Below are positions 6,271-31,019 of a stretch of DNA of 39,763 bases, one piece after another. Source of the DNA: Mobula birostris (taxonomy: Eukaryota). Numbering within the stretch: position 1 is the first letter of the stretch; each line of letters starts with the position of its first letter. The notes under the pieces are model-generated. The model worked only from the letters and a program-made list of their open reading frames with translations. It made no database searches and was not told the DNA's origin. Where the stretch lies: the NCBI RefSeq assembly GCF_030028105.1, contig NC_092384.1, positions 12,860,316-12,900,078 on the forward strand, written 5' to 3'. The translations under genes and the position numbers were made by a program.

Positions 6271-6299
6271 CAGCAGTCTATGTAGCCTCTAAACTGATG

Positions 6300-6722
6300 G
6301 AATGAAAATCGATATCTCCATCTTTCGCTGATCCATCCCCGTCCCTTCCTTCTTCTTCAATTGCCCACTCTAGACCCTCTGCTTATCACCTTGATCTGGT
6401 TTTCCCATGGTCTACTCTCCTCTGTTATCAAATTCCTTATTCTCCAGCCCTTTAACTTTTCCACTTACCACCTTCTTCCTTCTTACTTCATCCCCACCCC
6501 CCACCTCACCAACCCATCTGGCATCAGCTATCACCGTCTAGCCTGTACTTCTTCCTCTCCCTCACCTTCTTATGCTAACATCTTCCCCTTTCCTTTCCAG
6601 TCCCGAGGAAGGACCTCGGCCCGAACTTTTCACTGTGTATTCATTTCCACAGATGCTGCCTGTTCTGCTGATTTCCTCCAGCATTTTGGGTCTATTGCTC
6701 TGGTTTTCCAGCATCTGCAGAA
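6300..6722 (+). mobile_element. Penelope-like element (PLE) 3' end with decayed hammerhead motif
   Basis: CT-rich linker, then CAGTC-CCGAGGA-AGGACCTCGGCCC-GAAC (about 6598-6626) and GATGCTGCC...CCAGCATTTTG, homologous to 13608-13959 and to the reverse complement of 16074-16377. Confidence 0.7.
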
Positions 6723-7544
6723 TCTGTTGTACAGTACAGCACAGTACATGCCCTTCAGCCCACAATGCTGTGCCGACCCTCAAACTCTGCCTCCCATATA
6801 ACCCCCCCACCCCAGGACAAGATCTTTTAAAAAAAGAACTGCAATTAAATGTTTTATCCACAGAGTATAACGCCATAGAAATTTGAGCAGCTTGTGTACA
6901 ATCGTAGAGATCTGGTTGGTGTAGAGCACTACAAGAACATTGAAATTAATAGATGTTCTTCATTTCGTAGGATCATTTTATATATCGGTTTCTACACAAG
7001 ATGGCTCTGCAGTGCATTAGAACAGTGTTATAGTTCTAATCAGGTCTTGTTTTGAGGTGGGTCTGTGCATTTTCATGAACATGCTGGACAGGTAAAATAT
7101 CAATTTTAATGCCTTTACCTATCAGCAAGTTTTGAGAAAACCTTAAACATTACACGTTTCAAATGTCTAAAATCTATTCCTGTCTAAATATCTATTCAGA
7201 GCAATAGTCTACTTTATACAACTGCATTTTGTTTTTAGTGGGATATTTTACAAGAAGGAATTATTTACAATAAATTTCAACATGATAAACGTTGTTAAAA
7301 ATTTGGGTCTTCTAAACGCTTCAAATTTTGCTATCATTTGTGCTTCGCATAAAGGGGAAATGCAAGTGCAATGGGGAAATTACTGCATCGAACCGAAGTG
7401 GAACTTGGTTTCTCTTATAAAAAACGCTGTCAGACCTTTAGAGTATCTTCAAAACATTGCTATTACAACGATCAGAATGGCCTTTGTGCATTGGAACGAT
7501 GTATCCTGAACACGGCATGCCGATTCTGGGTCTGGTTTCTTCCA

Positions 7545-8886: not shown

Positions 8887-9048
8887 AACAGAGCCTCATA
8901 GAGCGGGCAGCGGAGTTTGCGGGCTGCAGAGTGAGCCGGGAGCAGAGTGAAGACTTAAGGGCTTCGGCTCAACGGGCTTAGGTGGAAACAGGCGAGGCGA
9001 GGGAGGTTTGGCATTCATTTTCTGTTGTTATTTGAGGAGAGGGGCAGT

Positions 9049-9984
9049 ATGAGTGTGAGGGCAGTTTGCTGTTCTCGGTGTCAGATGTGGGAGGGCCTGG
9101 AGTCTACAAGCCTCCCGGACGTCTACATCTGCGCCAAGTGCATCGAGATGCAGCTCCTTAGGGACCACGTTACGGAACTGGAGCTGCAGCTCGATGACCT
9201 TCGTCTGGTCAGGGAGAGTGAGGAGGTGATAGAGAGGAGCTGCAGGCAGGTGGTCACGCCGGGGCCACGGGAGGCAGACAAGTGGGTCACGGTTAGGAGG
9301 GGGAAGGGGAAAGGTCAGGTAATAGGGAGTACCCCGGTGGCTGTGCCCCTTAACAACAGGTACTCCTGTTTGAGTACTGTTGGGGGGGACAGCTTTCCCG
9401 GGAGAAGCGACAGTGGCCGTGCCTCCGGCACAGAGTCCGGCCCTGTAGCTCAGAAGGGTAGGGCAAGGAAGAGGAGGGCAGTTGTGATAGGGGACTCGAT
9501 AGTAAGGGGGTCAGATAGGTGATTCTGTGGACGCAGTCCAGAGACCCGGATGGTAGTTTGCCTCCCTGGTGCCAGAGTCCGGGATATTTCTGATCGTGTC
9601 CAAGATATCCTGAAGTGGGAGGGTGAGGAGCCAGAGGTCGTGGTACATATAGGTACCAATGACATAGGTAGGAAAAGGGATGAGGTCCTGAAAGGAGAAT
9701 ATAGGGAGCTAGGAAGGGAGTTGAGAAAAAGGACCGCAAAGGTAGTAATCTCAGGATTACTGCCTGTGCCACGCGACAGTGAGAGTAGGAATGCAATGAG
9801 GTGGAGGATAAATGCGTGGCTGAGGGATTGGAGCAGGGGGCAGGGATTCAAGTTTTTGGATCATTGGGACCTCTTTTGGCGCAGGCGTGACCTGTACAAA
9901 AAGGACGGGTTGCACTTGAATCCCAGGGAGACCAATATCCTGGCAGGGAGATTAGCGGGGGCTACTGAGGTGACTTTAAACTAG
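9049..9984 (+). pseudogene. CR1 ORF1p (CxxC...CxxC zinc finger, leucine zipper, SGNH esterase) with one in-frame stop
   Basis: ATG 9049; CSRC...CAKC, LLRDHVTELELQLDDL, GDSIV, GTNDI, DGLH. TGA at 9520-9522 splits ORFs 9025-9522 and 9550-9984, which are in the same frame. Confidence 0.9.
9975..9981 (+). promoter_or_regulatory. Candidate -1 ribosomal frameshift heptamer U_UUA_AAC at the ORF1/ORF2 overlap
   Basis: ORF1 ends ACT TTA AAC TAG; the -1 frame (TTT AAA CTA GAA TGG TTG...) is the ORF2 frame and is open from 9969. Confidence 0.5.
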
Positions 9985-9989
9985 AATGG

Positions 9990-12923
9990 TTGGGGGGTGG
10001 GAATCAAATTAAAGAGGCTAGGCGTGAGGAGGTTAGTTCACTACAGGGGGATGGGAACCAGTGCAGAGTGGCAGAAGGGTGTAAAGTGAGGGTAGAAACA
10101 AAAAGTACTATGGAGAAAAGTAAAAGTGGCAGGCCGACAAATCCAGGGCAAGCATTAAAAAGGGCCACTTTTCAGCATAATTGTATAAGGGCTAAGAGAG
10201 TTGTAAAAGAGCGCCTGAAGGCTTTGTGTGTCAATGCAAGGAGCATTCGTAATAAGGTGGATGAATTGAAAGTGCAGATTGTTATTAATGATTATGATAT
10301 AGTTGGGATCACAGAGACATGGCTCCAGGGTGACCAGGGATGGGAGCTCAACGTTCAGGGATATTCAATATTCAGGAGGGATAGACATGAAGGAAGGGGA
10401 GGTGGGGTGGCGTTGCTGGTTAAAGAAGAGATTAACGCAATAGAAAGGAAGGACATAAGCCGGGAAGATGTGGAATCGATATGGGTAGAGCTGCGTAACA
10501 CTAAGGGGCAGAAGATGCTGGTGGGAGTTGTGTACAGGCCACCTAACAGTAATAGTGAGGTCGGAGATGGTATTAAACAGGAAATTAGAAATGTGTGCAA
10601 TAAAGGAACAGCAGTTATAATGGGTGACTTCAATCTACATGTAGATTGGGTGAACCAAATTGGTAAAGGTGCTGAGGATGAGGATTTCTTGGAATGTATG
10701 CGGGATGGTTTTTTGAACCAACATGTCGAGGAACCGACTAGAGAGCAGGCTATTCTGGACTGGGTTTTGAGCAATGAGGAAGGGTTAATTAGCAATCTTG
10801 TCGTGAGAGGCCCCTTGGGTAAGAGTGACCATAATATGGTGGAATTCTTCATTAAGATGGAGAGTGACATAGTTAATTCAGAAACAAAGGTTCTGAACTT
10901 AAAGAGGGGTAACTTTGAAGGTATGAGACGTGAATTAGCTAAGATAGACTGGCAAATGACACTTAAAGGATTGACGGTGGATATGCAATGGCAAGCATTT
11001 AAAGGTTGCATGGATGAACTGCAACAAATGTTCATCCCAGTTTGGCAAAAGAATAAATCAAGGAAGGTAGTGCACCCGTGGCTGACAAGAGAAATTAGGG
11101 ATAGTATCAATTCCAAAGAAGCAGCATACAAATTAGCCAGAGAAAGTGGCTCACCTGAGGACTGGGAGAAATTCAGAGTTCAGCAGAGGAGGACAAAGGG
11201 CTTAATTAGGAAGGGGAAAAAAGATTATGAGAGAAAACTGGCAGGCAACATAAAAACGGACTGTAAAAGCTTTTATAGGTATGTAAAAAGGAAAAGACTG
11301 GTAAAGACAAATGTAGGTCCCCTGCAGGCAGAAACAGGTGAGTTGATTATGGGGAGCAAGGACATGGCAGACCAATTGAATAATTACTTTGGTTCTGTCT
11401 TCACTAAGGAGGACATAAATAATCTTCCAGAAATAGTAGGGGACAGAGGGTCCGGTGAGATGGAGGAACTGAGCGAAATACATGTTAGTAGGGAAGTGGT
11501 GTTAGGTAAATTGAAGGGATTGAAGGCAGATAAATCCCCAGGGCCAGATGGTCTGCATCCCAGGGTGCTTAAGGAAGTAGCCCAAGAAATAGTGGATGCA
11601 TTAGTGATAATTTTTCAAAACTCGTTAGATTCTGGACTAGTTCCTGAGGATTGGAGGGTGGCTAATGTAACTCCACTTTTTAAAAAAGGAGGGAGAGAGA
11701 AACCGGGGAATTATAGACCGGTTAGCCTAACGTCGGTGGTGGGGAAACTGCTGGAGTCAGTTATCAAGGATGTGATAACAGCACATTTGGAAAGTGGTGA
11801 AATCATCGGACAAAGTCAGCATGGATTTGTGAAAGGAAAATCATGTCTGACGAATCTCATAGAATTTTTTGAGGATGTAACTAGTAGAGTGGATAGGGGA
11901 GAACCAGTGGATGTGGTATATTTGGATTTTCAGAAGGCTTTTGACAAGGTCCCACACAGGAGATTAGTGTGCAAACTTAAAGCACACGGTATTGGGGGTA
12001 AGGTATTGGTGTGGGTGGAGAGTTGGTTAGCAGACAGGAAGCAAAGAGTGGGAATAAATGGGACCTTTTCAGAATGGCAGGCAGTGACTAGTGGGGTACC
12101 GCAAGGCTCAGTGCTGGGACTCCAGTTGTTTACAATATATATTAATGACTTGGATGAGGGAATTAAATGCAGCATCTCCAAGTTTGCGGATGACACGAAG
12201 CTGGGTGGCAGTGTTAGCTGTGAGGAGGATGCTAAGAGGATGCAGGGTGACTTGGATAGGTTGGGTGAGTGGGCAAATTCATGGCAGATGCAATTTAATG
12301 TGGATAAATGTGAAGTTATCCACTTTGGTGGCAAAAATAGGAAAACAGATTATTATCTGAATGGTGGCCGATTAGGAAAAGGGGAGGTGCAACGTGACCT
12401 GGGTGTCATTATACACCAGTCATTGAAAGTGGGCATGCAGGTACAGCAGGCGGTGAAAAAGGCGAATGGTATGCTGGCATTTATAGCGAGAGGATTTGAG
12501 TACAGGAGCAGGGAGGTACTACTGCAGTTGTACAAGGCCTTGGTGAGACCGCACCTGGAGTATTGTGTGCAGTTTTGGTCCCCTAATCTGAGAAAAGACA
12601 TCCTTGCCATAGAGGGAGTACAGAGAAGGTTCACCAGATTGATTCCTGGGATGGCAGGACTTTCATATGAAGAAAGAATGGATGAACTGGGCTTGTACTC
12701 GTTGGAATTTAGAAGATTGAGGGGGGATCTGATTGAAACGTATAAGATCCTAAAGGGATTGGACAGGCTAGATGTAGGAAGATTGTTCCCAATGTTGGGG
12801 AATTCCAGAACAAGGGGTCACAGTTTGAGGATAGAGGGGAAGCCTTTTAGGACCGAGATTGTCAGGGCCCTAGCAGAGATATCTAAAACATCCTTAGTGA
12901 CAAGAGAGCTACCAGAGGATTAA
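9990..12923 (+). CDS. CR1 ORF2p: APE endonuclease plus reverse transcriptase, with a chimeric last 20 aa
   Basis: 977-aa open frame. EN motifs NARSI, GITETW, VYRPP, GDFN, LDWVL, SDH; RT motifs PGPDG, YRPVSLTS, QHGF, YLDFQKAFD, GVPQGS, FADD. First in-frame ATG is at 10110. Confidence 0.95.
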   Translation: MGGGNQIKEARREEVSSLQGDGNQCRVAEGCKVRVETKSTMEKSKSGRPTNPGQALKRATFQHNCIRAKRVVKERLKALCVNARSIRNKVDELKVQIVINDYDIVGITETWLQGDQGWELNVQGYSIFRRDRHEGRGGGVALLVKEEINAIERKDISREDVESIWVELRNTKGQKMLVGVVYRPPNSNSEVGDGIKQEIRNVCNKGTAVIMGDFNLHVDWVNQIGKGAEDEDFLECMRDGFLNQHVEEPTREQAILDWVLSNEEGLISNLVVRGPLGKSDHNMVEFFIKMESDIVNSETKVLNLKRGNFEGMRRELAKIDWQMTLKGLTVDMQWQAFKGCMDELQQMFIPVWQKNKSRKVVHPWLTREIRDSINSKEAAYKLARESGSPEDWEKFRVQQRRTKGLIRKGKKDYERKLAGNIKTDCKSFYRYVKRKRLVKTNVGPLQAETGELIMGSKDMADQLNNYFGSVFTKEDINNLPEIVGDRGSGEMEELSEIHVSREVVLGKLKGLKADKSPGPDGLHPRVLKEVAQEIVDALVIIFQNSLDSGLVPEDWRVANVTPLFKKGGREKPGNYRPVSLTSVVGKLLESVIKDVITAHLESGEIIGQSQHGFVKGKSCLTNLIEFFEDVTSRVDRGEPVDVVYLDFQKAFDKVPHRRLVCKLKAHGIGGKVLVWVESWLADRKQRVGINGTFSEWQAVTSGVPQGSVLGLQLFTIYINDLDEGIKCSISKFADDTKLGGSVSCEEDAKRMQGDLDRLGEWANSWQMQFNVDKCEVIHFGGKNRKTDYYLNGGRLGKGEVQRDLGVIIHQSLKVGMQVQQAVKKANGMLAFIARGFEYRSREVLLQLYKALVRPHLEYCVQFWSPNLRKDILAIEGVQRRFTRLIPGMAGLSYEERMDELGLYSLEFRRLRGDLIETYKILKGLDRLDVGRLFPMLGNSRTRGHSLRIEGKPFRTEIVRALAEISKTSLVTRELPED

Positions 12924-13054
12924 AGGATAGCCAATGCTGTTCCACTGTTTAAAAAAGACTCTGAACAGAATCTAAGAAATTATAGGCCTGTGAGTCTGAC
13001 ATCAATTGTGGGAAAGTTATTGGAATGTATTCTATGGGACCGGGTATATAAGTA

Positions 13055-13959
13055 ACACACACAAAATGCAGGTGGAACTCAGCAGGCCAGGCAGCATCTA
13101 TGGAAAAGTGCAAAGTCAATGTTGCGGGCCAAGACCCTTCAGCAGGACTGGAGAAAAAGAACAGGAGTAAGGGGGTGGGGAGGAGAGGGACAAACACGGG
13201 GTGATAGGTGAAACTGGGAGGTGGGGAGTGGTGAAGTAAATAGTTGTGAAGTTGATTGATGAAAGCTATACAGGGATGGAGTAGGGGGAATCTATTAGGA
13301 TTCTAATAAGAATCTAATAGCAAGAAAGAAAAAGAGAGGGGAGCACCAGAGGGAGGCAGTAGACAGGTAAGGTGAGAGAGGGAAATAATAATGGGGAATA
13401 GAGAAGAGGGGATCATCACTGGAAATTCGAGAAATTGATATTCATGCCATCAGTTTAGACGCTACCCAGGCAGAATATAAGGTGTTGCTCTTCCAACCTG
13501 AGTGCGGTTTCATTGCGACAGTAGAGGAGGCCATGGATGGACATGTCAGAATGGGAATGGGAAGTGGAATTAAAATTGGTGGGCACTGGGAGAGAAATGG
13601 GAACATGCTCAGGTTGGAGGAGCAACACTTTATATTCCATCAGGGTAGTTTACAACCTTCTATTCTTTCCTATTTGATTTCCCCTTCTCCAGCCCTGCAT
13701 CTCTTTCACCAATCAACTTCCCAACTTTTTACTTTACCCCTCCCTTCCCACAGTTTGACTTATCACCTTGTGTTGCCCTTTACCATCCCCCCACCCTCTT
13801 ATTCTGACTCCATATCTTTTTTCCTCTGTTGAAGGGTCTCGGCCTGAAATGGTGACTGTACTCTTTTCCGTAGATGTTGCCTGGCCTACCGAGTGTCTCG
13901 AGCATTTTGTGTATGTTACTTGGATTTCCAGCATCTTCAGATTTTCTCCTGTTTGTTGA
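13055..13959. mobile_element. Fold-back (inverted) PLE-derived insertion with a 10-bp TSD
   Basis: Left arm is a minus-strand PLE end including the GIY-YIG C-terminal-like peptide FNSTSHSHSDMSIHGLLYC...RLEEQHLIF; right arm 13608-13959 is the same end on the plus strand; TATATAAGTA at 13045-13054 and 13960-13969. Confidence 0.85.
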
Positions 13960-14127
13960 TATATAAGTATTCTGATAGACATGAACTGATTAAGGTTAGT
14001 CAGCATGGCTTTGTGTGTAGTAGGTCATATCAAACCAATCCTAATGAGCATTTGAAGGAAGTTACCGGGAAAGAGGATGAAGGCAAGGCAGTGGATGGTG
14101 TATACAAGGGCTTTAGTAAGGCTTTTG

Positions 14128-14431: not shown

Positions 14432-16073
14432 TAGTATGGCGTTTGACAAGTTCCCACTTGTCAGGAAAGCTCAGTTGCTTGGCACTCAGGATAAGGTAGT
14501 AAATTTTCTTTGTGGGAGAAGCCAGAGAGTGGTAGTGAAGGGTTGCTTCTCTGACTGGGGCCTGTTAGTCATGGTGTGCCTCAAGGATCTCTGCTGGGTC
14601 CTTTGTTGTTTATCATCTAAATCAATAATCTAAATGATAATATGATTATCAACTTTGCAGATGATGCCAAGATTGGAGGTGTTGTGGACAGTAAGGAAGG
14701 TTATCATAGCTTGCAGAGGGATTTGCACCAACTGGAAAAATACACTGAAAAATGACAGATGGAATTTAATGCAGACAAGAGTGAGGTTTTGAACTTTGGT
14801 AGGACCAACCAGGGAAGGTCTTACACAGTGAACGGTAGGGCTCTGAGGAGTGTGGCAGAACAAAGGGATCTGGGAATACAGGTTAATATTTTGTTGAAAG
14901 TGGTGTCACAGCTACATAAGGTTGTAAAGAAAGCTTTCGGCACATTGGCCTTCATAAATCAATGTATTTGGTATTGGAGATGGGAGGCTGTGTTGAAGTA
15001 GTTTTAGATATTGCTGAGGCCTAATTTGGAGTACTGTGTGCAGCTTTGGACACCTACCTACAGGAAAGATGTAAACACGGCTGAAGGAGTACAGAAAAAT
15101 TCACAAGGATATTCAGGTCCTGGAGGACCTGAGTTGTAAGGAAAGATTGAATAGGGCTAGGATTGCATTCCTTGCAACATAGAAACTTGAGGGGAGATAT
15201 GATAGAGGTATACAAAATTATGAGGGGTATAGATAGGGTCATTGCAAGCAAGCTTTTCACTGAGGTTGGGTGGGACTACAACCAGAGGTCATGGGTTGAG
15301 GGGGAAAGGTGAAAAGTTTAAGGGGAACATGAGGAGAAACTTCTTCAGTCAGAGGGTAACAAGAGTGTGGATTGGGCTGCTGACACAAGTGGTGCATGGG
15401 AGCTTGACTTCAATGTTTAAGAGATGTTTGGATAGGTACATGGATAGTAGGGATATGGAGGGTTATGGTCCTGGTGCAGGTCAGTGGTAGTAGGCAGCTT
15501 AAATTCTTTAAGCAGGTACTATATGGGTCAAAGGGCCTCTTTCTCTGTTGTACTTCTCTAAGACTCTTTGAACTTGTGTGCATTTTTACGGTTATCACCC
15601 ATGTCTATCAAGGCCAGCATTTATTGCACATGTCTAGTTATCCCAATAATGTGTTGTTGTGCCTTTGTAAACTGTCAGAATTTATTACAATAACTGTTAG
15701 AACTGTATAGCTACATAAATCACTTATCAAAGACTATTGAGAGTGAAACATGATGGTGTGGAGCTGGAGACATGAATTAGTTATTTCCATACAAGGCCAG
15801 TTACTTTTGGTATTTAAAAAACTACAACTGATTTAAGGTCAGCTGCACTGGTGTTGGAGATTTTTCCCCTGTTGGCAATTACCTATTAGATGTGAACATC
15901 ACTAGGGAAGTGCTGCTAGTGGGTGGACAGGGATATTAACAATACCAAGTTGAAGATATTTAGCTATTTTCTTTATTCAAAATAGATGCCATAAATGACT
16001 GTAGTTCTCCAGACTGGAATGTATCAATACATTGTTCTACCAATTTCAGACAAGAGACCAACACATCTTTTAA

Positions 16074-16377
16074 GCAACACACATCAAAGTTGCTGGTGAA
16101 CGCAGCAGGCCAGGCAGCATCTCTAGGAAGAGGTACAGTCGACGTTTCAGGCCGAGCCCCTTCGTCAGGACTAACTGAAGGAAGAGTTAGTAAGAGATTT
16201 GAAAGTGGGAGGGGGAGGGGAGACCCAAAATGATAGGAGAAGACAGGAGTGGGAGGGATGGAGCCAAGAGCTGGACAGGTGATTGGCAAAGGGGATATGA
16301 GAGGATCATGGGACAGGAGGTCTGGGGAGAAAGACAAGGGGTGGGGGGGGAACCAGAGGATGGGCAAGGGGTATAGT
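16074..16377 (-). mobile_element. 304-bp non-coding PLE-end insertion with a perfect 12-bp TSD
   Basis: CACATCTTTTAA at 16062-16073 and 16378-16389; internal sequence homologous to the other PLE ends. Confidence 0.9.
16137..16172 (-). ncRNA. Minimal type I hammerhead ribozyme with intact core
   Basis: Minus strand AGTC-CUGACGA-AGG(GGCUCGG)CCU-GAAA-C-GUC/GACU: stem I AGUC:GACU, stem II AGG:CCU, loopless ACGU stem III; predicted cut between 16141 and 16140. Confidence 0.8.
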
Positions 16378-16799
16378 CACATCTTTTAATTTTATTTTAG
16401 TACATTCTTCAAAATATGAAAACATGGTCTCATTTCTCTGCACATCATTACTTAGGTACGTTTCTTTGCCATTCATATTGGCTTAAAGGAAATAACCAAC
16501 AAGTGAAACATTGTGACATAATGTGAAATATTCCCCTGTGAAATGTGTCAGTTTCTTAAGGAAAGGAGGAAAAGATTGACAGGTGTGGGATTTTGAACTG
16601 GGAGATACATTCATTAACTGCATTTCGAGGCAAACAACATATTGAAAGTTTTACTTAATACAGTGAATACTTCATGTTACTGTTTAGTTATTGCTTTTGG
16701 TCTTAGTTTAAAAGGCCAAATTGAAACCAATCATACATATTTAGTTGGGAATATCAAACCAGTGTATATAACCACTGTAATTGGTGCTGGTCAGATGTT

Positions 16800-17145
16800 G
16801 GCCTCAGCAAAGGAATGGGTATTTTTCAGACTGTAAGAGAAGTTCTCCAAAGATACTTAGCAAGAATGATAGGCTAGATAACAAGATATTTCCACTCGTG
16901 GGACAGACATGAACAAGAGATATGTTTTTAAGATTAGAAAGAAGCTATTTATAAGTGAGAAACAGTCAAACCTCTTCTCACAGAGGGCTGTAAATCTCTG
17001 GAATTAGGTCATTGATGTGTCTAATGAATTCTTGAAAAACCCAGGAATTGTGGGGAAGTAGCATAGAAGTGAAGATGCCGTAGTCTTTAATCATAATGAA
17101 TCATAATGACTTGAGGGGCTAAGTGGCCTGTCCTTGCTCCTATTC
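16800..17145 (+). mobile_element. Highly decayed CR1 3' end
   Basis: Residual similarity to CR1 C-terminal and 3' UTR blocks elsewhere in the window (GATATTTCCACTCGTGGG, CTTCTCACAGAGGGCTGTAAATCTCTGGAAT, AAGTGGCCTGTCCTTGCTCCTATT). Confidence 0.55.
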
Positions 17146-18169
17146 CTGATTTCGTCATATACAGACTGAAATAATGAACTTTCATGAATTCATAGAACTC
17201 TCTACAAGCACTACTTTATTGACTGAATGCAATGATACTGCATATGCTTTAATCTCTAAGAAATCCATCTTTGTTTTCAGGTATATCAATGTGTCAATTA
17301 CTCTTTAATTACAGATTCAGAGTTTTAGCTTTACAAAGAAAATTTTAATTTTATTTAAAGTAAAATTAAACATTTGTTTCTTGACATTTATGCTATTATG
17401 CAGATTATCTATATTTATAGCTTTCACAGGGAAACAGACAGAACAGCTCTGAAGCATAAACAGATTAATTAATGAGATTAATTAACAGAGTAATAGCATT
17501 ATATTAATGTTAGCTATTTAAACAAAGCATATGTAATGTACAGCAGATATAAAATAAATAGGCAGCAAGCAGCAATCCCTCATACACAAAGGTATTAAAA
17601 AAAATCAATGATTTCTTGTTGACCAAAAGAGTTTGCTAATGGGGCTAATTCACTCTCTCCTGTCTCTCTGCTGGCCTACAACAGTTAGTGTGTGATGATG
17701 TAATTGTAATTCAGCAAAATACAAGAAAACATAAAACCAAAATATAGAAATATTCTCTGCTATTAACTACGAAAAGTAATGTCACATCAATACTGAGGGT
17801 AGTTGTGGCCTTCACAACCACTGGTAGTGTATGGCAGATGTTTTTTTTTTGACTTTGCTACCTTTTAGAATAGAGTAGATACAAGCCCCAAAGCATTCTC
17901 ACTATTTTACCAAACTCCTGGAAATCTGAGTCTCAAACATCAATCAAATGAATCTGGAATAGATTTAATGTGGTATAAGTTTATCTATCTCTAATATGAA
18001 TGGAGATTTTCCTCTCCCCACAAATAGTGAATGATCTGCTGGCCTTTTCCAACTTTCTCCTTTTGGCTTCACTTCTTTCCAGCATAGACTTGACACGCAT
18101 TTCATAATATACATGTCCTTTCATTTCATCTGCACTCCCTCTCTCGCTATAGCTTCAGTCATTAATCAA

Positions 18170-18350
18170 ACAAATACAGGTTTGTAAACTGCACGACAAA
18201 TCCTGTCTCACCCAATCTACTCCACAAATTGAAACTAATTTATTTTCTCATTTATCCAGTTCTGATGAAGGATCTTCAAACTGAAATGTTAGCTGTTTCT
18301 CTTTCCACAGATCCTGTCAGCCTGTTAAACATCTATAGCATTTTCTATGA
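18170..18350 (+). mobile_element. Old PLE 3' end relic containing a hammerhead-like motif (18257-18295)
   Basis: CAGTT-CTGATGA-AG...CT-GAAA-T-GTT/AGCTG followed by TTTCTCTTTCCACAGAT, matching the PLE-end layout. Confidence 0.6.
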
Positions 18351-18901
18351 ATGCTGATCATATACCCCGCTTATCTATCAGTTCTGAATTATGAGTACAT
18401 TTTAAATAAGCAATCAAATGCAATTCACAGTGTCCAAAGAAAATTAGGAATTCTTCAGTGTCCCAAATTATCTCTGCGGAACACCGCTAGCCACTGTCAG
18501 CCAACCAGAAAAGGCTTCCATATTCCCATACTTTGCCTCTTGCTAGTCAGCCAATCTTGTATCCATGCTAACACCATTAAAAGCATAGGCTCATATATAT
18601 TGAGTGGCACATGTGTGGCACCTTGTCAAAGCCCTTTTGAAAGTCCAAGAAAACAACATCCCTGCCTGTTACTTCCTCAAATTATTCCAAAAGGTTTGTC
18701 AGGTAAGATTTCCCATTAACAAAACCACATTGACTTTGACTATTTTATCAATATTTCAGTAAGAGATTAAGTATAATAAAATGCAGTAATTAATGTCTTT
18801 TAAACATCAAATATTTTGATGACACTCTATTGTAATATAAGTATTGATGGCATTACCTAAGCTATAGGTACTATAAAATTCATTTGTTTTATTTAATGAG
18901 A

Positions 18902-19107
18902 TCAGATACTCATTGGTTCATTTCTCTTTTTGTGATGTTTCTTGACCTTTGCCGAGGCATTTGTAGCATCTTCTGTTCTACTTGGGTTCCTTGGTGTCAT
19001 CTCTATGCTCTTTTTTACTGGATCCTGTTTCTTTTTTTCTTTAGACTTTGCTATTATTGGTTCATTACACCGTGAACAGGACTTCGTTTGAACCTTGTCT
19101 TTATGAG
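18902..19107 (-). CDS. Terminal coding exon (cytoplasmic tail) of the Ig C1-TM receptor
   Basis: Acceptor ttttacttgcag|CT in phase 1, matching the TM exon donor; encodes (A)HKDKVQTKSCSRC...KKHHKKRNEPMSI then TGA 18904-18902; non-repetitive; AATAAA at 18893-18888. Confidence 0.6.
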
Positions 19108-20367
19108 CTGCAAGTAAAATACAATGGACAAAATTTTCATTGATAAATAGGAATTGCAGAAACACTTCAGATATTTTTTAATTCATTATTTAGTGTGCTG
19201 GTACTACCAAACATTTTGATCCATCTAATATATGTTGCAGCATCATTAAGATGATTATAGGACTACTAAAATTGTCCCGTGTCCAGGGACTACTAAAGAC
19301 TGAGGATATCAGGCAAAATTCCCAGTTCTGACATTGTTAATTATGAAGTTGTCTGTGTGAAGTACTTAGTTATAGTGTGATCAGGAATTAGAAGTTTGGC
19401 TATTGTTACACATGGAGAAGGGGACTTAGAATGAAACATACAAAAGGTGATGCAATTTTTCTGTGTTCTCCAGAGTAGAATGTCGGAAGTCCAAACCTGA
19501 GCTTCTTTGTCAGTTAGTGAAAACCATTCAAAGTGAATGGTAGTTCTCTGCAACTAAAGTACTTTAAAATGTATTTCCTGCTACTCTTTGAGAATCAATT
19601 ATTGTACTCATGCCACTGTTCCATGAACAACAAAATAAATACATGTAAATTAGGTGACCTAATCTGATAGCGGCTTTCAATCATTTTGAATGTGGGATAA
19701 ACATTGATGAAGGATTAGACAGGAATTAAGCTGTTTCTGTTAAAATGTTATATCAATTATTTGGATTCACTTGAGAGAACAATGAAAACACAATTCAAAA
19801 TCACAAATGACTGACATTGAGTACTCCTTTACAGTCAGTTGTAATACAAGATCTTGTGTTAGAATCTCTTTCTTGTTACAATGGCATATTATAAAGAGTC
19901 GGTGTTTCAGGCTGACACCCTGCATCAGGTCAGGCACTGTTGCACTTATTCAAAAACCACTCAAAATGAATGAAAATGCTCTGTAACATTCCAGATTCTA
20001 TAAAATTTAAATTACCAAAATAAGGAAATTGGAGATCAGAGGCATTAAGTGACTATGTTTCAATACGAGAGTGATTACAGGAGCTCTTTATGCATTTATT
20101 GGGATGGGCAACAGATGCTGCGCTTTACAGTGACACCCACTTTTATGGAAATGAACATATAGAGGAAATAGTATGTAGGTTATTAAAATCTTAACTTAAA
20201 TCTAAGAATCCGTGTTTTTAAAGGAATTGGCAGTAAACAGAAATTCAAGCTTCCTGGAAGTAGATTTATGGTGGAGATTTAAGAATTTTAGGACATACAG
20301 CATAAAGCAATATTTAACAGGATGAAGGTCGTGGATTCAGTAAAGGATAAGAGGCAAAATTTGTTGA

Positions 20368-21060
20368 TTTTCTTTTTTATTCTTTTTGGTAATTTTTTTT
20401 ATTGAAATTCATCATCAAACAAGCATTCCCATAAGGTGGATTTCCCATATTGTACATATATATAATATAGTCATATATGCCACAAATCACATAATATTTA
20501 TCTGGGATATACACTTATAGAAAAGAGAGGAAAGAAAAGACAAGCAAAAGGAGAAAACTGTACAAGTAGGGAGTGATCTTTTTTTTTACAACATATTAAT
20601 TGATTTGTGAGAATAAAATCAGACCTATGAGGTGTTATGCAGTTAAACCATTTTTCCCAGTATGAATCAAATTGTTGCAACTTACGATTAACAGATGCTG
20701 TTATCTTTTCCATTTTGTAAATGTCCATTGTAATTTCCATCCATGCATTTAAAGTTGGGCTCTCCTGTGATAACCATTTCCTGGCAAGAGTCTTCTTACC
20801 AGCCACCAGCATTATATTCATTAAATATTTATCTCTCTTCAACAAATATCTTGACGTATAAACCCAAAATATATGGTCTTACTTTCTAAGGTATTTCACA
20901 TTTAAAGATGTCTTGTAGGGCATTATGCATCCCACTCCAATAGTCTTCGATAACAGGGCATTCCCAGAAAATATAATAATGGTTTGCATTTTGATTTCCA
21001 CATTTTCTCCAGCAAACAGGGAGGTTACTATTATAATAGGATTTCTGAGAGGGTGTAACT
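20368..21060 (-). mobile_element. L1 LINE 3' end (ORF2 C-terminus, 3' UTR, poly-A)
   Basis: TPSQKS...CWRKCGNQNANHYYIFWECP (Cys/His domain); reverse-complement homolog of 22690-23370; T-rich tail at about 20368-20402. Confidence 0.85.
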
Positions 21061-21099
21061 GTGATGTGGTCCTGAATTACCCCTATGAACTGTACTTTT

Positions 21100-23370
21100 G
21101 ACAAGAGAGAGAGATCACATTATGGATCATATAAAAAAAAAATTGAAGCAATAGTGATAAGCGTGGATGCTAAAAAGGCATTTGATTCGGTTAATTTGAA
21201 TTTTCTTTACAGAATTTTACATACACTTGGTCTACATGACACAATTATTCAAACTATACAGGCACTATACGACAATCCTACTGCCAGGATTAAAATTAAT
21301 GGATATTAATCTAATAGTTTAACCCTAGAAAGGGGCATGAGACAGGGTTGTGCATGGTCACCGCTACTCTTCACATTATATCTGGAACCATTAGCTCAAT
21401 ACATCAGACAAAATGAAGATATCAGGGGAATTACTATTAAAGGGACAGAATAAATTGGCCTGTTACGCGGGTGACATTTTGATCTATCTAGGACAACCAA
21501 CATACTCTTTACCTAAATTGATGCAATCCTTTGAATAATATGGCCGATTATCAGGATACAAGATCAACATAGATAAAAACCCAACTGCTTTCATATAACT
21601 ATAGCCCACCAAGAGAAATAGAAAGTAGATATCCTTGGGCATGGCAAACAGAGTCCATCAAATATTTGGGCATCATTATGCCAAAAGATTTGGCAAAATT
21701 ATCATAATGCAATTATCAGCCTATATATAAAAAAATTGAGGAAGATATAACAAGCTGGAACCTAATTCCTTTTCTTGGTCTATTAAACTGAATATATTGC
21801 CCAGACTACTATATCTCTTTCAGACCCTACCAATAGAGATTAACCAAAATCAATTCAATGAATGGAACAAGATGCTATCAAGATATATATGGCAAGGTAA
21901 AAGGCCTAGGGTTCATCTCAAAACTTTGAAATTAGCCAAGAGAAAGGGGCTGGGGCCTAACTTCTCTTAGGGATTATTATTTTGCAGCACAGTTGAGCGC
22001 CGTGATATGCAGTGCAACCCATCATATGATGTTGAATGGAAAAACATTGAGGAGAGGATACTTTCCATCCCCATGCAGGCAATTTTGGCTGATAGCAACC
22101 TACAAAGTTACATGAATAATATTGACAACCCGTGGGTGAAATGGACTCTTAAAATATGGAAAACTATTATAAAAGAACATAAACTAGAGAGAGACATTGC
22201 AATTCTTAAATGGTGTGCATATGACTTGGATTTTACGCCAAATAAACTGGATGCTAGATTTAAGGACTGGACAGCTAAAGGAAAAACAGCTATTTGCAAT
22301 ATAATGAAAGAAGGAACACTGTTCAGTTTTGAAATGCTCAAAGAGAAACACTTATTAGAAAAAAAGACTTTTACTGGTACTTACAGATGTGACAGTACGT
22401 TAATAGGATGATTAAAAATGTAACCAAGGCAAGTACATGTCTGATGGAGCTATTTAGAAAAGCATATACTTCAGACAACGGTAGTTGTTTGTAGAATAAT
22501 TTCAAGCATGTATAAGGGTTTGTGAAATCTTAAAACACATTCAACTTCACACATTAAAACAAAATGGGAGAGGGAAGGAGGGATAATAATATCTGAGGAA
22601 GACTGGACAATAATATGGAGGTATCAATGGAAGTGTACCAGTTCACAGAAATGGAGGGAGTTTGGGTGGAAAAACTTGATAAGATATTTTATTACACCCT
22701 CTCAGAAATCCCATTATGATAGTAACCCCCCTGTTTGCTGGAGAGATTGTGGAAATCAAAATGTAAACCATTATCATATTTTCCGTGAAATCCCCGTTAT
22801 CAAAGACTATTGGAGTGGGATACATAATGCCCTACAAGACGTCTTTAAATGTGAAATACCCTTAGATGGTAAGACCATATATTTTGGGTATATACCTCAA
22901 GAACAGTTGAGAAGAGATAACTTCTTAATAAATATACTGCTGGTGGCTGGTAAAAAGACCCTTACCAGGAAATAGTTATCACAGGAGAGCCCAACTTTGA
23001 ATGTTTGAATGGAAATTACAATGGACATTTACAAAATGGAGAAGATAGCTGCATCTGTTAATCATAAGTTGGAACTATTTTATGCATACTGGAAAAAAAA
23101 AGGTTTAACTACAAAACACCTCATAGGCCTGATTTTATTCTCACAAGTAAATGAATATGTTGTAAGAAAAAATCACTCCCAACTCCGTACGTAGTTTTCT
23201 TCGATTGTTCTTTCTTTCCTCTCCTTTTTTATAAGTGTATACCTCAGATAAATATTATGTGGAGATTTGTGACAAATATGATTATATGATATATATGTAC
23301 AGTATCTGAAATACATCTTATGGAAATGTTTGTTTGATGAAATTCGATAAAAAATAAATTACAAAAAAAA
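21100..23370 (+). mobile_element. L1 LINE, 5'-truncated within RT, with poly-A
   Basis: ISVDAKKAFDSV, decayed RQGCxxSPLLF, CWRDCGNQNVNHYHIF, ends AAATTAC(A)n; multiple stops and frameshifts. Confidence 0.9.
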
Positions 23371-25150
23371 AGAACGGATATTGGTCTAAATGACCCACAT
23401 TCCATTTTATCCTTGCCGTCTTTTGCTATAGCTGAGATTATAGCTTCCTTCTAGCTGAATGGCATTTGTGACTTTTTAGAGCCCTGTTCAGTGTGGAGAA
23501 TAAGGCAGGAATTAACTCATTTTAAAATTTTTTGTACCACTCTGCCATATACCCATCTGATCCTGGTGACTTGCTTAATTTAAGCCTACTAATTGCAGCT
23601 TTTAGTTCAACTTCAGTTATGCCAGCAGTCATTGTTCTATTTTATTCTTTGTTTAAAGTGGGTAACTCTGGAGAATTCAGGAAGGTGTCAATTTGGGTTC
23701 TGGTTTCCCCTGGAGCTTTGGAATATAGAGTTTTGTAAGACACTTCAAAAGCTTCTTAAATTTCACTTAGCTTATTTTTTTTTATCATTTTTGTTCTTGG
23801 ATCCCTAATTCTATGAATTATATTTTCTACTATCTTTTTTACCCCAGGTTCCGTGCCAGTATTTTCATAGACTTAGATCCACTTTCATAATGTCTCTGTT
23901 TCAGAAACATTAAATTTTTCCTGATTTCTTGCGTAGCCAAACTATTAATTTCATTCCTATTTTCTTTTAAATTTCCTCTAATGTATCCTGTGCCAAGTTC
24001 AATTTTTCTTGTTTTTCTAGTTCCTTCAGCCTATTTTGTAATTCCTCTAATGTTTTATTCCTTATATTTTTCTTATATGAAGATATCGTTATAATTTTCC
24101 TCTTAAGAGTATCCCATAGAGTGGGAGGTGAAACCTCTCCATTATCATTGAATTCTAAGTAAAGACCAATTTCTTTTTTAACTTGTTCATTAAATTAGGG
24201 ATCATTGAGTGGTTTGAATTCAGTTTCCAAATTCAGTTTTGGTTGTAGGTCAAAATCAACAGATAAATATATAGGTGCATGGTCACTTACACCTATTGTC
24301 CCAATTCCACAAGTGTTCATTTTGTCTTTGTCTTTTCCAAATGCTATGAAATAATCTATTCTTGTATATACAGAATGGGGGGCAGAATAAAGAGTGTAAT
24401 CTCTTCTGTCTGGGAAAAGGTCCCTGCATATATCAATTGGACCAACATCCTCAAAAAGGATTTTGTTTCATAGGTTTTTCTATTGGAAGAGTCTAACTTT
24501 GGTTGCAATTGTGAATTTAAGGCTCACCCTCAAATCAGGAGACCTTCTGTTTCCATTAGCATAATATGAGTAATTTTCTGAAAGAATCTAATATCACTTC
24601 CTGGGGGTGCATATATATTCAATAGAGTAACTGAATTTCCGTCTATGCTCCCCCTTACCAGAATATATCTACCCTCCTTATCTCCCATTTCGAATACTTT
24701 TTCAAAATTTAGCTTGCTTGAGATAAGAATAGCAACTCCTCTCCTATGTCCTGATTTATATGAGGAGAAAAACAAATTAGCGAAGCCCATTCTCTTTAGT
24801 TTTCCATGCTCATTATCACCTGTGAGTTTCCTGTAAATATACTACATGGGCTTGTTCTTATTTTTATTTGGATAGAGTTTTACTGCGTTTGATTGAATTT
24901 AACAGCCCATTGACATTAAAAGAAATTTTACTTTGTCCTTAGCCATGTGTATTTATCTGTCAATGTGTCATTGAAATTAGCAGAATAAAACTTAATCAAT
25001 CTACTCCCTGAACAAATAAGAACCAAGAAATGCGAGTAATTTAAAAAAAGGTAATGAAGGTGTGATTCCAAAGCTAAGGTCTCTAGTTGATGACCCTGGG
25101 TTGAGCTAGAGGAAACGTCTAGCCGTGGGTGATAGCCCCTCCTAAAACTT
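23371..25150 (-). mobile_element. L1 LINE 5' ORF2 part (EN to RT motif 1) plus inter-ORF spacer
   Basis: ATG at 24946 (MAKDKVK...NVNGL), RRGVAILI, LLNIYAPP; ends at GSFRPISVL at about 23370. The upstream limit is approximate. Confidence 0.85.
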
Positions 25151-25799
25151 TGTTGATTTTCAAGGACAGAAAAGATGGAATGTCAGGTTTATATAGAAAT
25201 TCAGTCTTAAAGAGACAAGAGGACAAAAGAGGACAGGAGGAGAGCAGGGGCAAAATCAAATCACCCTGAAATTGCCCTGAAACATTCAATGTCCTTTAAA
25301 CATCTGATAAGTCTACCCACATAATAACTTGTGTCTTGTAGTTGAATATTAAAGAACCAGTCGACTGAGTTGTTTTACGTGTATTTATTCCTGCAAATTG
25401 GTAATTATAGTTTAATATCCCTTGACTTAAAGGATTAACAGCACAGTGAAAATTCAAGTTTTAAAATGCTAGCAGGTCCCTGAAGTTACAAACACACTCT
25501 CAAAGGAAGAAACAGCATTAAAGTAATGGCTTGGTTGTGAGGAAATAAGATAAACAACAATGGAGGAAACAGGTGGTAGAGTCTGATAAATGTGATTAAT
25601 AACTTGTAACCTTCTTTGTCACTGTCCTTGTACATAGCTTCAATGTCAAAATACAGGATACAGGAGTCATGAGTTCAAAACATAAGTGGGCTAGGACACA
25701 ATAGATAAAGCTCTTGTACATCCCTGTAAATGGAAAATAGAGCTTAATGATCAATCAATGAATGCCTTGATAAATGTAAGGATTTTAGGATTAAAGGGT

Positions 25800-25930
25800 G
25801 TAAACCTCCTCCTCACCAATCCTGTCACTTACAGATATGGGTGTTCCTGAGGCACATACATCTGTCACGCATAGCATTGGTATAAGTGACCACAGCACGG
25901 TTGTCATGGAGACTAACCTCCTTATTTGCA
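25800..25930 (+). mobile_element. Relic of a LINE APE endonuclease C-terminus
   Basis: Frames give LLLTNP...SVTHSIGISDHSTV, resembling the LDLxLTN...SDH motif pair. Confidence 0.45.
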
Positions 25931-26398
25931 TTTCCCCTCTCCCTACAATTATGATTATGTTGGGGCTTAACACTGATTCAGTGAGGAGTGCAGAAGGGCA
26001 TGCTCATCCAAAAATGATAACTGCAGCGACAAACTACACTCACACTAAACAGCAAACTAGCATGAAACCGACAGAGCTAAGCAATCTCAAATAAGCAGAT
26101 CCAACAAGTTCTGCAGTCCTACTAAATCTACTTGTGAATGGAAATAACAGAGTCTCAAAGACAACATGCTTAGCATATGACTGCTGGAGTCATGGCTACA
26201 TCCAGTCAGAAGTGCCAAATAGGTAATCCTTCCATCTAAAATCCCAGGACATGCCCCCTTCTCATTGTCAATGTTGGAAAGGAGGTACAGAAGCCAGAAG
26301 GCACACAACAAGTGATTCAGTAACAACTTCTTCCCTTGTACATCTAATTTCTAAATGGACATTGAACCCATGAGCAGGACCTCACTACTTCTTTTTTA

Positions 26399-26900
26399 AC
26401 CATATAACATATAACAATTACAGCACGGAAACAGGTCACCTTGGCCCTTCTAGTCCATGCCGAACTCTTACTCCCACCTAGACCCACCGACCTGCACTCA
26501 GCCCATAACCCTCCATTCCTTTCCTGTCCATATAGCTGTCCAATTTAACATTAAATGACAACACCAAACCTGCCTCAACCACTTCTGCTGGAAGCTCGTT
26601 CCACATAGCTACCACTCTCTGAGTAAAGAAGTTCCCCCTCATGTTACCCCTAAACTTTTGCCCTTTAACTCTCAACTCATGTCCTCTTGTTTGAATCTCC
26701 CCCACTTTCAATGGAAAAAGCCTATCCACGTCAACTCTATCTATCCCCCTCATAATTTTAAATATCTCTATCAAGTCCCCCCCTCAACCTTCTACGCTCC
26801 AAAGAATAAAAACCTAATTTGTTCAACCTTTCTCTGTAACTTAGGAGATGAACCCAGGCAACATTTTAGTAGATCTCCTCTGTACTCTCTCAATTTTATT
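26399..26900 (-). mobile_element. CR1 host C, 3' part
   Basis: ORF 26478-26774 (KIMRGIDRVD, RGNFFTQRVV); tail CATATAACATATAAC at about 26401-26415. Confidence 0.9.
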
Positions 26901-29082
26901 AGAAACATAGAAACATAGAAAATAGGAGCAGGTGTAGGCCATTCGGCCCTTCGATCCTGCACCGCCATTCAGTATGATCATGGCTGGCCATCCAACTCAG
27001 AACCCTGTACCTGCCTTCTCTCCATACCCCCGATCCCTTTAGCCGCAAGGGCCATATCCAACTTCCTCTTAAATATAGCCAATGAATTGGCCTCAACTGT
27101 TTCCTGTGGCAGAGAATTCCACAGATTCACCACTCTCTCTGTGAAGAAGTTTTCCTCATCTCGGTCCTAATAGGCCTCCCCTTTATCCTTAAACTGCGAC
27201 CCCTCGTTCTGGACTTCCCCAACATCGGGAACAATCTTCCTGCATCTAGCCTGTCCAATCCCTTTAGAATTTTATACGTTTCAATAAGATCCCCCCTCAA
27301 TCTTCTAAATTCCAGTGAGTATAAGCCCAGTCAATCCAGTTTTTCTTCATATGAAAGTCCTGCCATCCCAGGAATCAATCTGGTGAACATTCTTTGTACT
27401 CCCTCTATGGAAAGAATGTCTTTCTTCAGATTAGGGGACCAAAACTGCACACAATACTCCAGGTGTGGTCTCACCGAGGCCTTGTACAACTGCAGTAGAA
27501 TCTCCCTGCTCCTGTACTCGAATCCTCTTGCTATGAATGCCAGCATACCATTCGCCTTTTTCACCGCCTGCTGTATCTGCATGCCCACTTTCAATGACCC
27601 GTGTACAATGACACCCAGGTCTCGTTGCAACTCCCCTTTTCCTAATCAGCCACCATTCAGATAATAATTTGTTTTCCTGTTCTTGCCACCAAAGTGGATA
27701 ACCTCACATTTATCCACATTAAATTGCATCTGCCATGAATTTGCCCACTCACCTAACCTATCCAAGTCATCCTGCATCCTCTTGGCATCCTCCTCACAGC
27801 TAACACTGCCGCCCAGCTTCGCATCATCTGCCAACTTAGAGACGCTGCATTTAATTCCCTCATCTAAGGCATTAATATATATTGTAAACAACTGGGGTCC
27901 CAGCACTGAGCCTTGCGGTACCCCACTAGTCACTGCCTGCCATTCTGAAAAGGTCCTGTTTATTCCCACTCTTTGCTTCCTGTCTGCCAACCAATTCTCT
28001 ATCCACATCAATGCCATACCCCCAATACCATGTGCTTTAAGTTTGCACACTAATCTCCTGTGTGGGACCTTGTCAAAAGCCTTCTGAAAATCCAAATATA
28101 CCACATCCACTCCCATCCACTCTACTAGTTACATCCTCAAAAATTTCTATAAGATTCGTCAGACATGATTTTCCTTTCACAAATCCATGCTGACTTTGTC
28201 CGATGATTTCACCTCCTTCCTAATGTGCTGTTATCACATCTTTGATAAATGACTCTAGCATTTTCCCCACCACTGATGTTAGGCTAACCGGTCTATAATT
28301 CCTTGGTTTCTCTCTCCCCGCTTTTTTAAAAAGTGGGGTTACATTAGCCACCCTCCAATCTTCATGAACTAATCCAGAATTTAAAGCATTTTGAAAAATT
28401 ATCACTAATGCATCCAATATTTCTTGGGCTACTTCCTTAAGCACTCTGGGATGCAGACCATCTGGCCCTGGAGATTTATCTGCAGTTAATCCCTTCAATT
28501 TACCTAACACTACTTCCCTACTAACATGTATTTCCCTCAGTTCCTCCATCTCACTACACCCTCGATCCCCTACTATTTCCTGAAGATTATTTATGTCCTC
28601 CTTAGTGAAGACAGAACCAAAGTAGTTATTCAATTGGTCTGCCATGTCCTTGCTCCCCATGATCAATTCACCTGTTTCTGACTGTAAGGGACCTACATTT
28701 GTCTTAACCAATCTTTTTCTTTTTACATATCTATAAAAGCTTTTACAGTCAGTTTTTATATTCCCTGCCAGCTTTCTCTCAACCTTTTTTCCCCTTTCTT
28801 AATTAAGCCTTTTGTCCTCCTCTGCTGGACTCTGAATTTCTCCCAGTCCTCAGGTGTGTCGCTTTTTCTGGTTAATTTGTATGTTTCTTCTTTGGAATTG
28901 ATACTATCCCTAATTTCCCTTGTCAGCCACAGGTGCACTACCTTCCCTGGTTTATTCTTTTGCCAAACTGGGATGAACAATTGTTGTAGTTCATCCATGC
29001 GATCTTTAAATGCTTGCCTTTGCATTTCCACCGTCAATCCTTTAAGTGTCATTTGCCAGTCTATCTTAGCTAATTCATGTCT
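26901..29082 (-). mobile_element. Young CR1 family Y, 2.2-kb 5'-truncated copy nested in host C
   Basis: Colinear reverse complement of about 10925-12860 plus the 3' end; (AGAAACAT)n tail from 26901; TTATT duplicated at 26896-26900 and 29082-29086. Confidence 0.95.
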
Positions 29083-29675
29083 TATTGACATCCTTCCTAT
29101 AATACGGTGACCAGAACTGTACATAATACTCCAAATTTGGCCTCACCAATGCCTTATACAATTTCAACATTACATCCCAACTCCTATACTCAATGCTCTG
29201 ATTTATAAAGGCCAGCATACCAAAAGCTTTCTTCACCACCCTATCCACATGAGATTCCACCTTCAGGGAACTATGCACCATTATTCCTAGATCCCTCTGT
29301 TCTACTGCATTCTTCAATGCCCTACTATTTGCCATGTATGTCCTATTTTGATTAGTCCTACCAAAATGTAGCACCTCACATTTTTCAGCATTAAACTCCA
29401 TCTGCCATCTTTCAGTCCACTTTTCTAACTGGCCTAAATCTCTCTGCAAGCTTTGAAAACCTACTTCATTATCCACAACTCCACCTATCTTCGTATCAAC
29501 TGCATACTTACTAATCCAGTTTACCACCCCATCATCCAGATCATTAATATATATGACAAATAACATTGGACCCAGTACAGAACCCTGAGGCACACCGCTA
29601 GTCACCGGCCTCCAATCTGACAAACAGTTATCCACCACTACTCTCTGGCGTCTCCCATCCAGCCACTGCTGAATC
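29083..29675 (-). mobile_element. CR1 host C, 5' part (RT)
   Basis: ORF 29075-29701: QRVVV...SGVPQGSVLGPMLF...YAVD...RPNLEYYVQFW; continues into 26895 once the insert is removed. Confidence 0.9.
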
Positions 29676-29739
29676 CTTTTTATTTCTGTTTTTCTTTGCA
29701 CTAATTTTAACTTAACTATTTAATAGACATATAAATACT

Positions 29740-29862
29740 TACTGCTATTGCTTTTTTCCTCTATATTTGGTAATCATGTATTTCATTGTACTGCTGCAGT
29801 AAAGTTAACAAATTTCACGACATATGCCGGTGATATTAAACCTGATTCTGGTTCTGATTCTG
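29740..29862 (+). mobile_element. Short LINE/SINE 3' tail
   Basis: Ends ...GATATTAAACCTGATTCTGGTTCTGATTCTGA, a (TTCTGA)n-type tail; family not determined. Confidence 0.45.
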
Positions 29863-30154
29863 ATCACAGAAGCAAACCTTCATCAATTCAGCTCTCTCCA
29901 AATATCAGGAAATGTCTGAGAGCCGTTGATACACTGGACACTTTGCCTTTAAATATCCCTCACCTAATCTGAAAACCCAGTGTTTGCCATGGATGTATCC
30001 AATTTACATTCTCTTTTACTTTGAGCAGCTCATGAGGGAAAAAAGTCACGTAAATCAAAATGTTGATGCTGAAGCCCATAATAACGGAATGGTTAATTCA
30101 CTAAATTCTTGAATGATATAAACATAGTCTCATTGAAAAGAGATTGTTTCTTAC

Positions 30155-30900: not shown

Positions 30901-31019
30901 TGTGCTCGATGTGTACGATTGATCTCAAAGAATGGAAGTACAAGGCTGGCAATGAGAGGCAAATAAAAAAAGCATATTATGCCCTCAGTTCATTGAATCA
31001 TACAGGATGTATGATGGGT

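Follow-up and report, generated by a model that had tools for sequence, protein, structure and literature searches.

Minimal type I hammerhead ribozymes (min-HHRs) in the pseudo-LTRs of metazoan Penelope-like elements (PLEs), including those of the fish elements Neptune, Poseidon and Xena, are described as having a full core, a stem I of 4-5 bp, an extra base before stem II, and palindromic positions 15.2-16.2 with no loop 3; they occur as dispersed single copies, mostly from truncated PLEs, show no cleavage as monomers and low cleavage as dimers (Cervera & de la Pena 2014, PMC4209133). Within the endonuclease-bearing (EN+) PLEs, the Neptune/Nematis type is marked by a CX2-5CXXC linker and carries a C-terminal GIY-YIG domain, and its insertions are described with 5' truncation, an inverted truncated partner and an optional tail of 30-40 bp (Craig et al. 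2021, PMC8557442). The Poseidon element of Anolis uses AT-rich targets, has two 3' end points (with and without a tail) and bears its hammerhead near the 3' end; this hammerhead is reported to cut only with the protein, to be dispensable for insertion in vitro, and to have no RNA-seq reads ending at its ribozyme site (Frangieh et al. 2024, PMC11167929). Animal non-LTR retrozymes are non-coding units of ~300 nt with type I hammerheads, target site duplications (TSDs) of >4 bp and a PLE origin, whose exonic copies tend to 3' UTRs (Cervera & de la Pena 2020, PMC7229834; Li, Clavereau & Pollet 2026); their layout is given as tandem and their GC content as <50% (PMC7229834). The 2026 preprint counts a retrozyme as active only with at least two consecutive hammerhead units, and describes most PLE insertions as 5'-truncated with one terminal repeat; its chondrichthyan families may be relevant to the one treated here (bioRxiv 10.64898/2026.07.22.740005). 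Mammalian Clec2, a gene for an immune-type membrane protein, carries in its 3' UTR a split hammerhead that has activity in vitro and whose cut site falls between the stop codon and the poly(A) signal (PMC6765202).

The locus described here lies in a window of 39,763 nucleotides (the whole stretch of ray DNA that was analysed) and has something in common with each of these systems. Its hammerhead has the structural features of PLE min-HHRs named above and their dispersal as single copies from truncated PLEs, but its stem II is short (3-4 bp), has a private mismatch and lacks G10.1-C11.1, and its host is a ray (compare PMC4209133). The C-terminal GIY-YIG, the linker, the 5' truncation, the inverted partner and the optional tail are those of Neptune/Nematis EN+ PLEs; unlike the elements of PMC8557442, the insert is without coding sequence; its putative clade is read from the linker between reverse transcriptase (RT) and endonuclease. 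It resembles the Anolis element in its AT-rich target, its two 3' end points and the position of the hammerhead, whereas that element is of the Poseidon clade with an ORF that starts at stem II, where the core here reads ACG (PMC11167929). With non-LTR retrozymes it shares the hammerhead type, length, non-coding nature, TSD length and PLE origin; unlike them, it holds a single minimal hammerhead, has a GC content of 55% and runs on into the PLE body. The likeness to Clec2 lies in the kind of gene and the end of it that is occupied, but the insert is the remnant of a transposon, depends on dimer formation and lies behind five AATAAA signals.

The 304-bp insert (16074-16377, minus strand) is flanked by identical 12-mers at 16062-16073 (AT-rich, at the element's 3' end) and 16378-16389 (at its 5' end), which bears out both the perfect 12-bp TSD and the insert length proposed in the first-pass annotation. 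Exact 12-mer pairs 50-1000 bp apart number only 30 in the whole window, and this pair brackets the repeat edges; the edge at the 3' end is blurred by 2 nt, with tail-bearing family copies matching the window to 16072. The element (GC = 54.6%) lacks the optional tail and contains a pyrimidine-rich tract (16174-16377, minus strand; 79% C+T over the first 200 nt of the element) without a poly(A) hexamer. Folding of the whole 304 nt gave no excess structure (z=0.11). The earlier statement that the element has no ORF holds in so far as no ATG frame within it exceeds 48 codons, but a stop-free frame of 101 codons that lacks an ATG runs across it (16074-16376, minus strand; 138 codons with flank). 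A coding role for this frame was rejected: it has no ATG, and the one match among 385 candidates is partial and lies in a gene model.

Both insert junctions are present in DNA contigs of two species (organisms A and B), whose flanks differ by 30 letters and nine gaps in 1,936. The insertion is therefore older than the split of organisms A and B, and an assembly artefact is ruled out. Run X1 is a possible source of the window and is not independent evidence. No empty-site joint was found among the contig joints listed.

The insert is very probably the solo, 5'-truncated 3' end (3' UTR or pseudo-LTR) of a ray PLE. Its first 69 nt (16309-16377, minus strand) are colinear with the read-through tail of P0002, a gene model of a ray PLE, at a distance of ~93 nt past the end of GIY-YIG, as judged by tblastn and shuffling. 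This model extends beyond the usual stop and on into 3' UTR sequence; its terminal 23 residues form a proline-rich match to the 5' end of the element (79% over 23-24 aa, E 1e-6; tblastn, filters off). The score of the match (95) was reached by 0/2000 protein and 0/1000 DNA shuffles, and none of three further pyrimidine-rich window copies attained it; when P0002 was compared with the 23-aa stretch by BLASTP at default settings, no alignment was returned. The score of a second model, P0005, was reached by 68 of 2000 shuffles and supports the link to the ORF weakly; the putative tie of this exact subfamily to a PLE ORF stands on one 23-aa proline-rich match (P0002), with P0005 weaker. The colinearity with the P0002 tail implies that the element starts ~90-93 nt behind the ORF end.

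Sister copies carry the comparison into the protein itself. An older insertion at 13045-13969 consists of two 5'-truncated PLE ends back to back, with a 10-bp TSD and a tail on one end; each end has a pyrimidine tract and, upstream of it, a decayed GIY-YIG C-terminus (13419-13592, minus strand, and 13593-13658, plus strand). This inverted pair, with its TSD and one tail, has the layout described in PMC8557442, and may be regarded as a textbook PLE inverted insertion. Used as a query, the decayed protein end returned six proteins among seven candidates, five of them named from rays, and the C-terminus at 13419-13592 is 67-78% identical to those six database proteins. In the six proteins examined, YIDD was present in 3/6, a GIY-YIG-like motif in 4/6 and a CX4CXXC linker in 4/6, the CX2-5CXXC linker between RT and endonuclease being found in P0001, P0002, P0004 and P0005; P0002 itself has YIDD, the CX4CXXC linker and a GIY-YIG-like motif. 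Pfam searches of seven full-length relatives (from the best 150 listed) detected the RT in 6/7 and GIY-YIG in 7/7, several below the curated cut-off; the GIY-YIG matches of P0001, P0002 and P0004 also lay below it, and the 59-aa decayed ORF end matched no Pfam family. Judging by these motifs, the protein relatives are endonuclease-bearing PLEs, of Neptune/Nematis type by the linker.

Seven other related ends were found in the window (five at nhmmer E<0.01, two weaker), in agreement with the first-pass count of five or more in 40 kb. Besides the inverted pair, these include an older PLE 3' end (6278-6730, plus strand) that keeps a trace of the ORF end, has a broken core and bears a tail, and an older end that lies antisense within the same host 3' UTR (18245-18330, plus strand), with its core letters intact and stem II decayed. 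Two short decayed PLE ends in opposite directions, overlapping or abutting, occupy an intron of the host gene at 33793-33925. TSDs of at least 8 bp were not found for the copies near 6280-6735 and 33770-33940. When all contigs from four of the 24 listed runs were aligned to the region, many family copies ended at 16068-16074, some with the tail, and the summed depth, which is no copy number, dropped from the 3' to the 5' bin (2.1e7, 1.1e7 and 1.3e6, the last bin being only partly element) against ~35-45 in the flanks. The copies thus show the PLE pattern of 5' truncation: a common 3' end, an optional tail and inverted partners. The earlier proposal of a dispersed, PLE-mobilised family is supported.

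Following the literature, the insertion would have been target-primed at an AT-rich site, with the RT halting early. A PLE protein would nick the AT-rich site, here the poly(A)-signal region; reverse transcription from the element's fixed 3' start would stop after 304 nt, ~90 nt short of the ORF; and repair would leave the 12-bp duplication, the product being a dead-on-arrival copy of an abundant ray PLE.

Other repeats are also present in the window. A young LINE at 8959-12923 (plus strand), which looks like CR1 type, contains a stop-free frame of 984 codons preceded by one that is broken in two, with further copies near 1889-3292 (plus strand) and 27086-29142 (minus strand). Decayed LINE pieces, presumably of L1 type, lie on both strands at 20400-24900, in the last intron of the host gene, with inverted arms of 86-91%.

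The minimal type I hammerhead occupies 16136-16173 (minus strand), with its core, stems and cleavage base located. Stem I pairs 16173-16169 with 16140-16136 (5 bp, comprising four Watson-Crick pairs and one G-U), the core reads CUGACGA (16168-16162) and GAAA (16148-16145) with 11/11 core positions kept in organism A, and cleavage is predicted after C17 of a GUC triplet, at 16141. The half of stem III is the palindrome ACGU (16145-16142), which pairs only with a second molecule; as had been suggested, this is a PLE-type minimal hammerhead whose palindromic stem III needs a partner half, and a dimer can be built. The further description of the hammerhead as intact applies to the core only; stem II (16161-16149) is weakened, with 3-4 bp in any register. 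Here G at 16157 is a private mismatch, T being present in 6/7 other window copies, and an M. hypostoma gene model with the same PLE end shows Ser in place of the Ala read from this copy, consistent with T at 16157. In addition, the 10.1-11.1 pair of stem II is G-U or A-U, not the conserved G-C, its last base being C in 3/7 other copies. Since the full descriptor (core, stem I and stem II) has one match in the window and was matched in only 1/300 shuffled windows, a chance motif is rejected. Rfam searches gave nothing at the gathering score over the window, around the site no family of hammerheads reached E<=10, and pattern scans of viral, metagenome and prokaryote contigs for the hammerhead region and 3' motif gave 0 matches.

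Predicted folding does not favour the active form. In ViennaRNA, which ignores the hammerhead tertiary core, the core is base-paired to the cleavage site in the minimum-energy fold of the monomer, which has -12.4 kcal/mol compared with -5.6 to -7.2 for hammerhead-like folds, and stem I has a probability of 0.0 in its 127-nt context. For the dimer, an inactive fold reaches -33.8 versus -10.9 to -13.9 for the active structure, which is buildable though not of minimum energy. An excess of conservation in the core, the lack of which the first-pass annotation would count against its reading, is not seen: the core decays like its neighbours (17/77 vs 107/441, p=0.77, a weak comparison drawn from seven old, diverged copies in a rough alignment), and all core letters are kept in 1/7 other window copies. 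In the parent PLE the hammerhead would act only as a dimer or with help from the PLE protein, whereas the copy at hand stands alone and is slightly damaged, and its ribozyme is probably silent.

The gene upstream of the insert, as read from its predicted exons, is a V+C1 membrane protein gene of B7/butyrophilin-like kind. Within the window it comprises an Ig C1-set exon (36408-36695, minus strand; Pfam C1-set E 2e-11), B7/NCR3LG1-like or butyrophilin-like; a transmembrane exon (30155-30265, minus strand); and the coding part of the last exon, which encodes the cytoplasmic tail (18902-19107, minus strand; the RNA contig match begins at 19109), with its stop at 18904-18902. These three exons can be joined in frame up to this stop, and no V exon of the gene was found within the window. 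The C1 exon matches P0156 (butyrophilin-like 10, Mobula hypostoma) at 96% and P0157 (NCR3LG1-like, Hemitrygon akajei) at 88%, which points to a ray near Mobula as the source of the window. The 'Ig gene' of the earlier account codes for a membrane protein named NCR3LG1-like or butyrophilin-like, and is not an antibody gene. The gene (18902-36695, minus strand) has a basic, cysteine-bearing cytoplasmic tail, and its automatic names disagree. The hammerhead is sense to the gene, as stated before, with C17 on the same strand 2,761 nt past the stop at 18902 (2.7 kb in the earlier account).

Probable RNA contigs cover ~2.5 kb of host 3' UTR (16350-18901, minus strand; runs X5 and X13). A 3,468-nt contig of run X5 equals 19109-16350 without a difference, its other 708 letters exiting at the predicted splice acceptor, and a 3,598-nt contig of run X13, from the second organism, matches 19098-16351 with 844 letters to spare at the same acceptor. 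The RNA status of both runs is a guess; because their long contigs leave the window at a predicted splice acceptor, we treat them as probable spliced mRNA. The 3' UTR passes five AATAAA signals and contains, at ~18470-18735, a high-copy repeat fragment with a depth jump in all four runs. Near the insert, three poly(A) hexamers, ACTAAA (16401), AATAAA (16396) and ATTAAA (16390, overlapping the TSD), lie at 16385-16401 (minus strand), 7-18 nt before the element edge, and there are none within the element. The RNA contigs enter the element by 27-28 nt, with at most one unmatched letter, and then break at the repeat at 16350/16351, 209-210 nt short of C17; DNA contigs break at the repeat likewise (16353 and 16352). 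They pass the AATAAA by 41 nt and the ATTAAA by 35 nt. The usual distance from a poly(A) hexamer to the cleavage site is 10-30 nt, so that these values tell against an end set by the cluster, and some RNA does continue into the element. The earlier suggestion that host RNA may reach the element is supported in two species, and transcripts do not end well before 16172 in the sense then envisaged, since the contigs enter the element and break only at the repeat.

We consider it likely that the end of the host mRNA is set by this upstream poly(A) cluster. The insertion would have landed 13 nt behind the gene's last AATAAA, and for this reason the host mRNA would reach the element. With three hexamers 7-18 nt before the edge, ordinary polyadenylation is the likelier end, most likely a few tens of bases into the element and ~200 nt ahead of the cleavage site. 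From the density in the UTR, an AATAAA would fall within 50 nt of where the contigs end with a probability of ~0.09, which, together with the preference of PLEs for AT-rich targets, means that the coincidence with AATAAA is not a strong one. That the ribozyme does not set the end of the host mRNA is, in our judgement, very likely, and the account as a whole (a truncated PLE end, a ribozyme that is probably silent, and a host mRNA that is most likely ordinarily polyadenylated) appears probable.

In an alternative that we regard as unlikely, the insertion weakened the old poly(A) site by parting it from its downstream flank, and the mRNA reads through to the AATAAA at 15977 (15972-15977, minus strand, the next one downstream of the element), leaving the hammerhead mostly inert in a mature 3' UTR. 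The contigs do extend further than a cleavage site usually lies from its signal, as far as the break at the repeat; the displaced flank has seven GT/TG steps in the 15-45 nt window versus three in the element; and a T-rich stretch lies downstream of the 15977 signal. At the same time, this AATAAA is uncovered in both probable RNA runs, with zero depth over 15654-16055 in X5 and X13, whereas the far flank is covered by DNA contigs of both species. The lack of a listed RNA contig there in 2/2 probable RNA runs is a weak hint against read-through, as the filter drops some records.

Considerably less probable than read-through is an active role for the ribozyme, in which the hammerhead half, completed by a partner half from PLE RNA or assisted by PLE protein, cuts host RNA at 16141, so that a 3' end is made or trimmed, output is lowered in a Clec2-like manner, or termination is helped. 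The sense orientation, the 11/11 core positions and the buildable dimer are all compatible with such a cut, as are the retention of the insertion in both species and the RNA contigs that enter the element, with none listed beyond it, in two species. Family sequence is also plentiful in the probable RNA runs (5,773 and 7,587 contigs, strand ambiguous). However, the poly(A) hexamers lie upstream of the cut, unlike in Clec2 (PMC6765202), stem II has a mismatch and inactive folds are favoured, and cleavage by PLE min-HHRs is poor even in dimeric form (PMC4209133); in the anole, no RNA-seq reads end at the site (PMC11167929). Moreover, the antisense copy at 18245-18330 of this UTR could form a duplex with the hammerhead region at -61.8 kcal/mol, where the best of 70 control windows gave -47.8, and chance alone would place some of the eight ends in 40 kb at the ends of genes. 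It is accordingly very doubtful that the solo PLE hammerhead half at the poly(A) site became part of the 3'-end control of the host gene by cutting read-through RNA at 16141; ordinary polyadenylation remains the preferred reading.

The first-pass annotation had called the element retrozyme-like, a term that does not fit a single, non-tandem copy whose sequence is the 3' UTR or pseudo-LTR of an autonomous-type PLE cut on its 5' side. That the insert is a monomer of a genuine non-autonomous retrozyme family, whose units of a fixed ~300 nt spread via circular RNA, is highly improbable: the length does fit the 363-bp average of chondrichthyan non-LTR retrozymes (bioRxiv 10.64898/2026.07.22.740005), and run X1 has a head-to-tail joint from 16172 to 16072 (11 letters between, depth 310), but no tandem repeat was found at the locus, the descriptor matches a single hammerhead across the window, upstream the element runs on as PLE sequence, no loose-end pile occurs at 16377 among the rows listed, the X1 joint implies a unit of ~112 nt and not 304, and the GC content is 55% against <50% in described retrozymes (PMC7229834). 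Being neither tandem nor self-contained, and with a GC content that is not <50%, the insert is not a member of the retrozymes. The X1 joint suggests that short tandem hammerhead units exist somewhere in genome A, and these ~112-nt units, possibly elsewhere in the genome, may be real retrozyme candidates.

The insert is one of very many truncated PLE ends, and a ray example of the kind described for fishes in 2014. In the titles and opening parts of abstracts on chondrichthyan Penelope elements and hammerheads, we found no paper devoted to this ray PLE/hammerhead family. The same PLE end also occurs in coding frame in P0159 (STARD3 N-terminal-like isoform X3, Mobula hypostoma), where residues 174-207 are 30/34 identical, a possible case of exonisation or an artefact of the model. 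Should the improbable cut of host RNA prove real, transposon activity would modulate the expression of an immune-type gene in trans, which could also hold for many ray genes with sense copies at their ends. The locus is useful in that, in two species, a young copy with a full core sits where an expressed gene apparently ends, and it offers a clean place to ask whether solo PLE hammerheads cut host RNA in trans or with the PLE protein.
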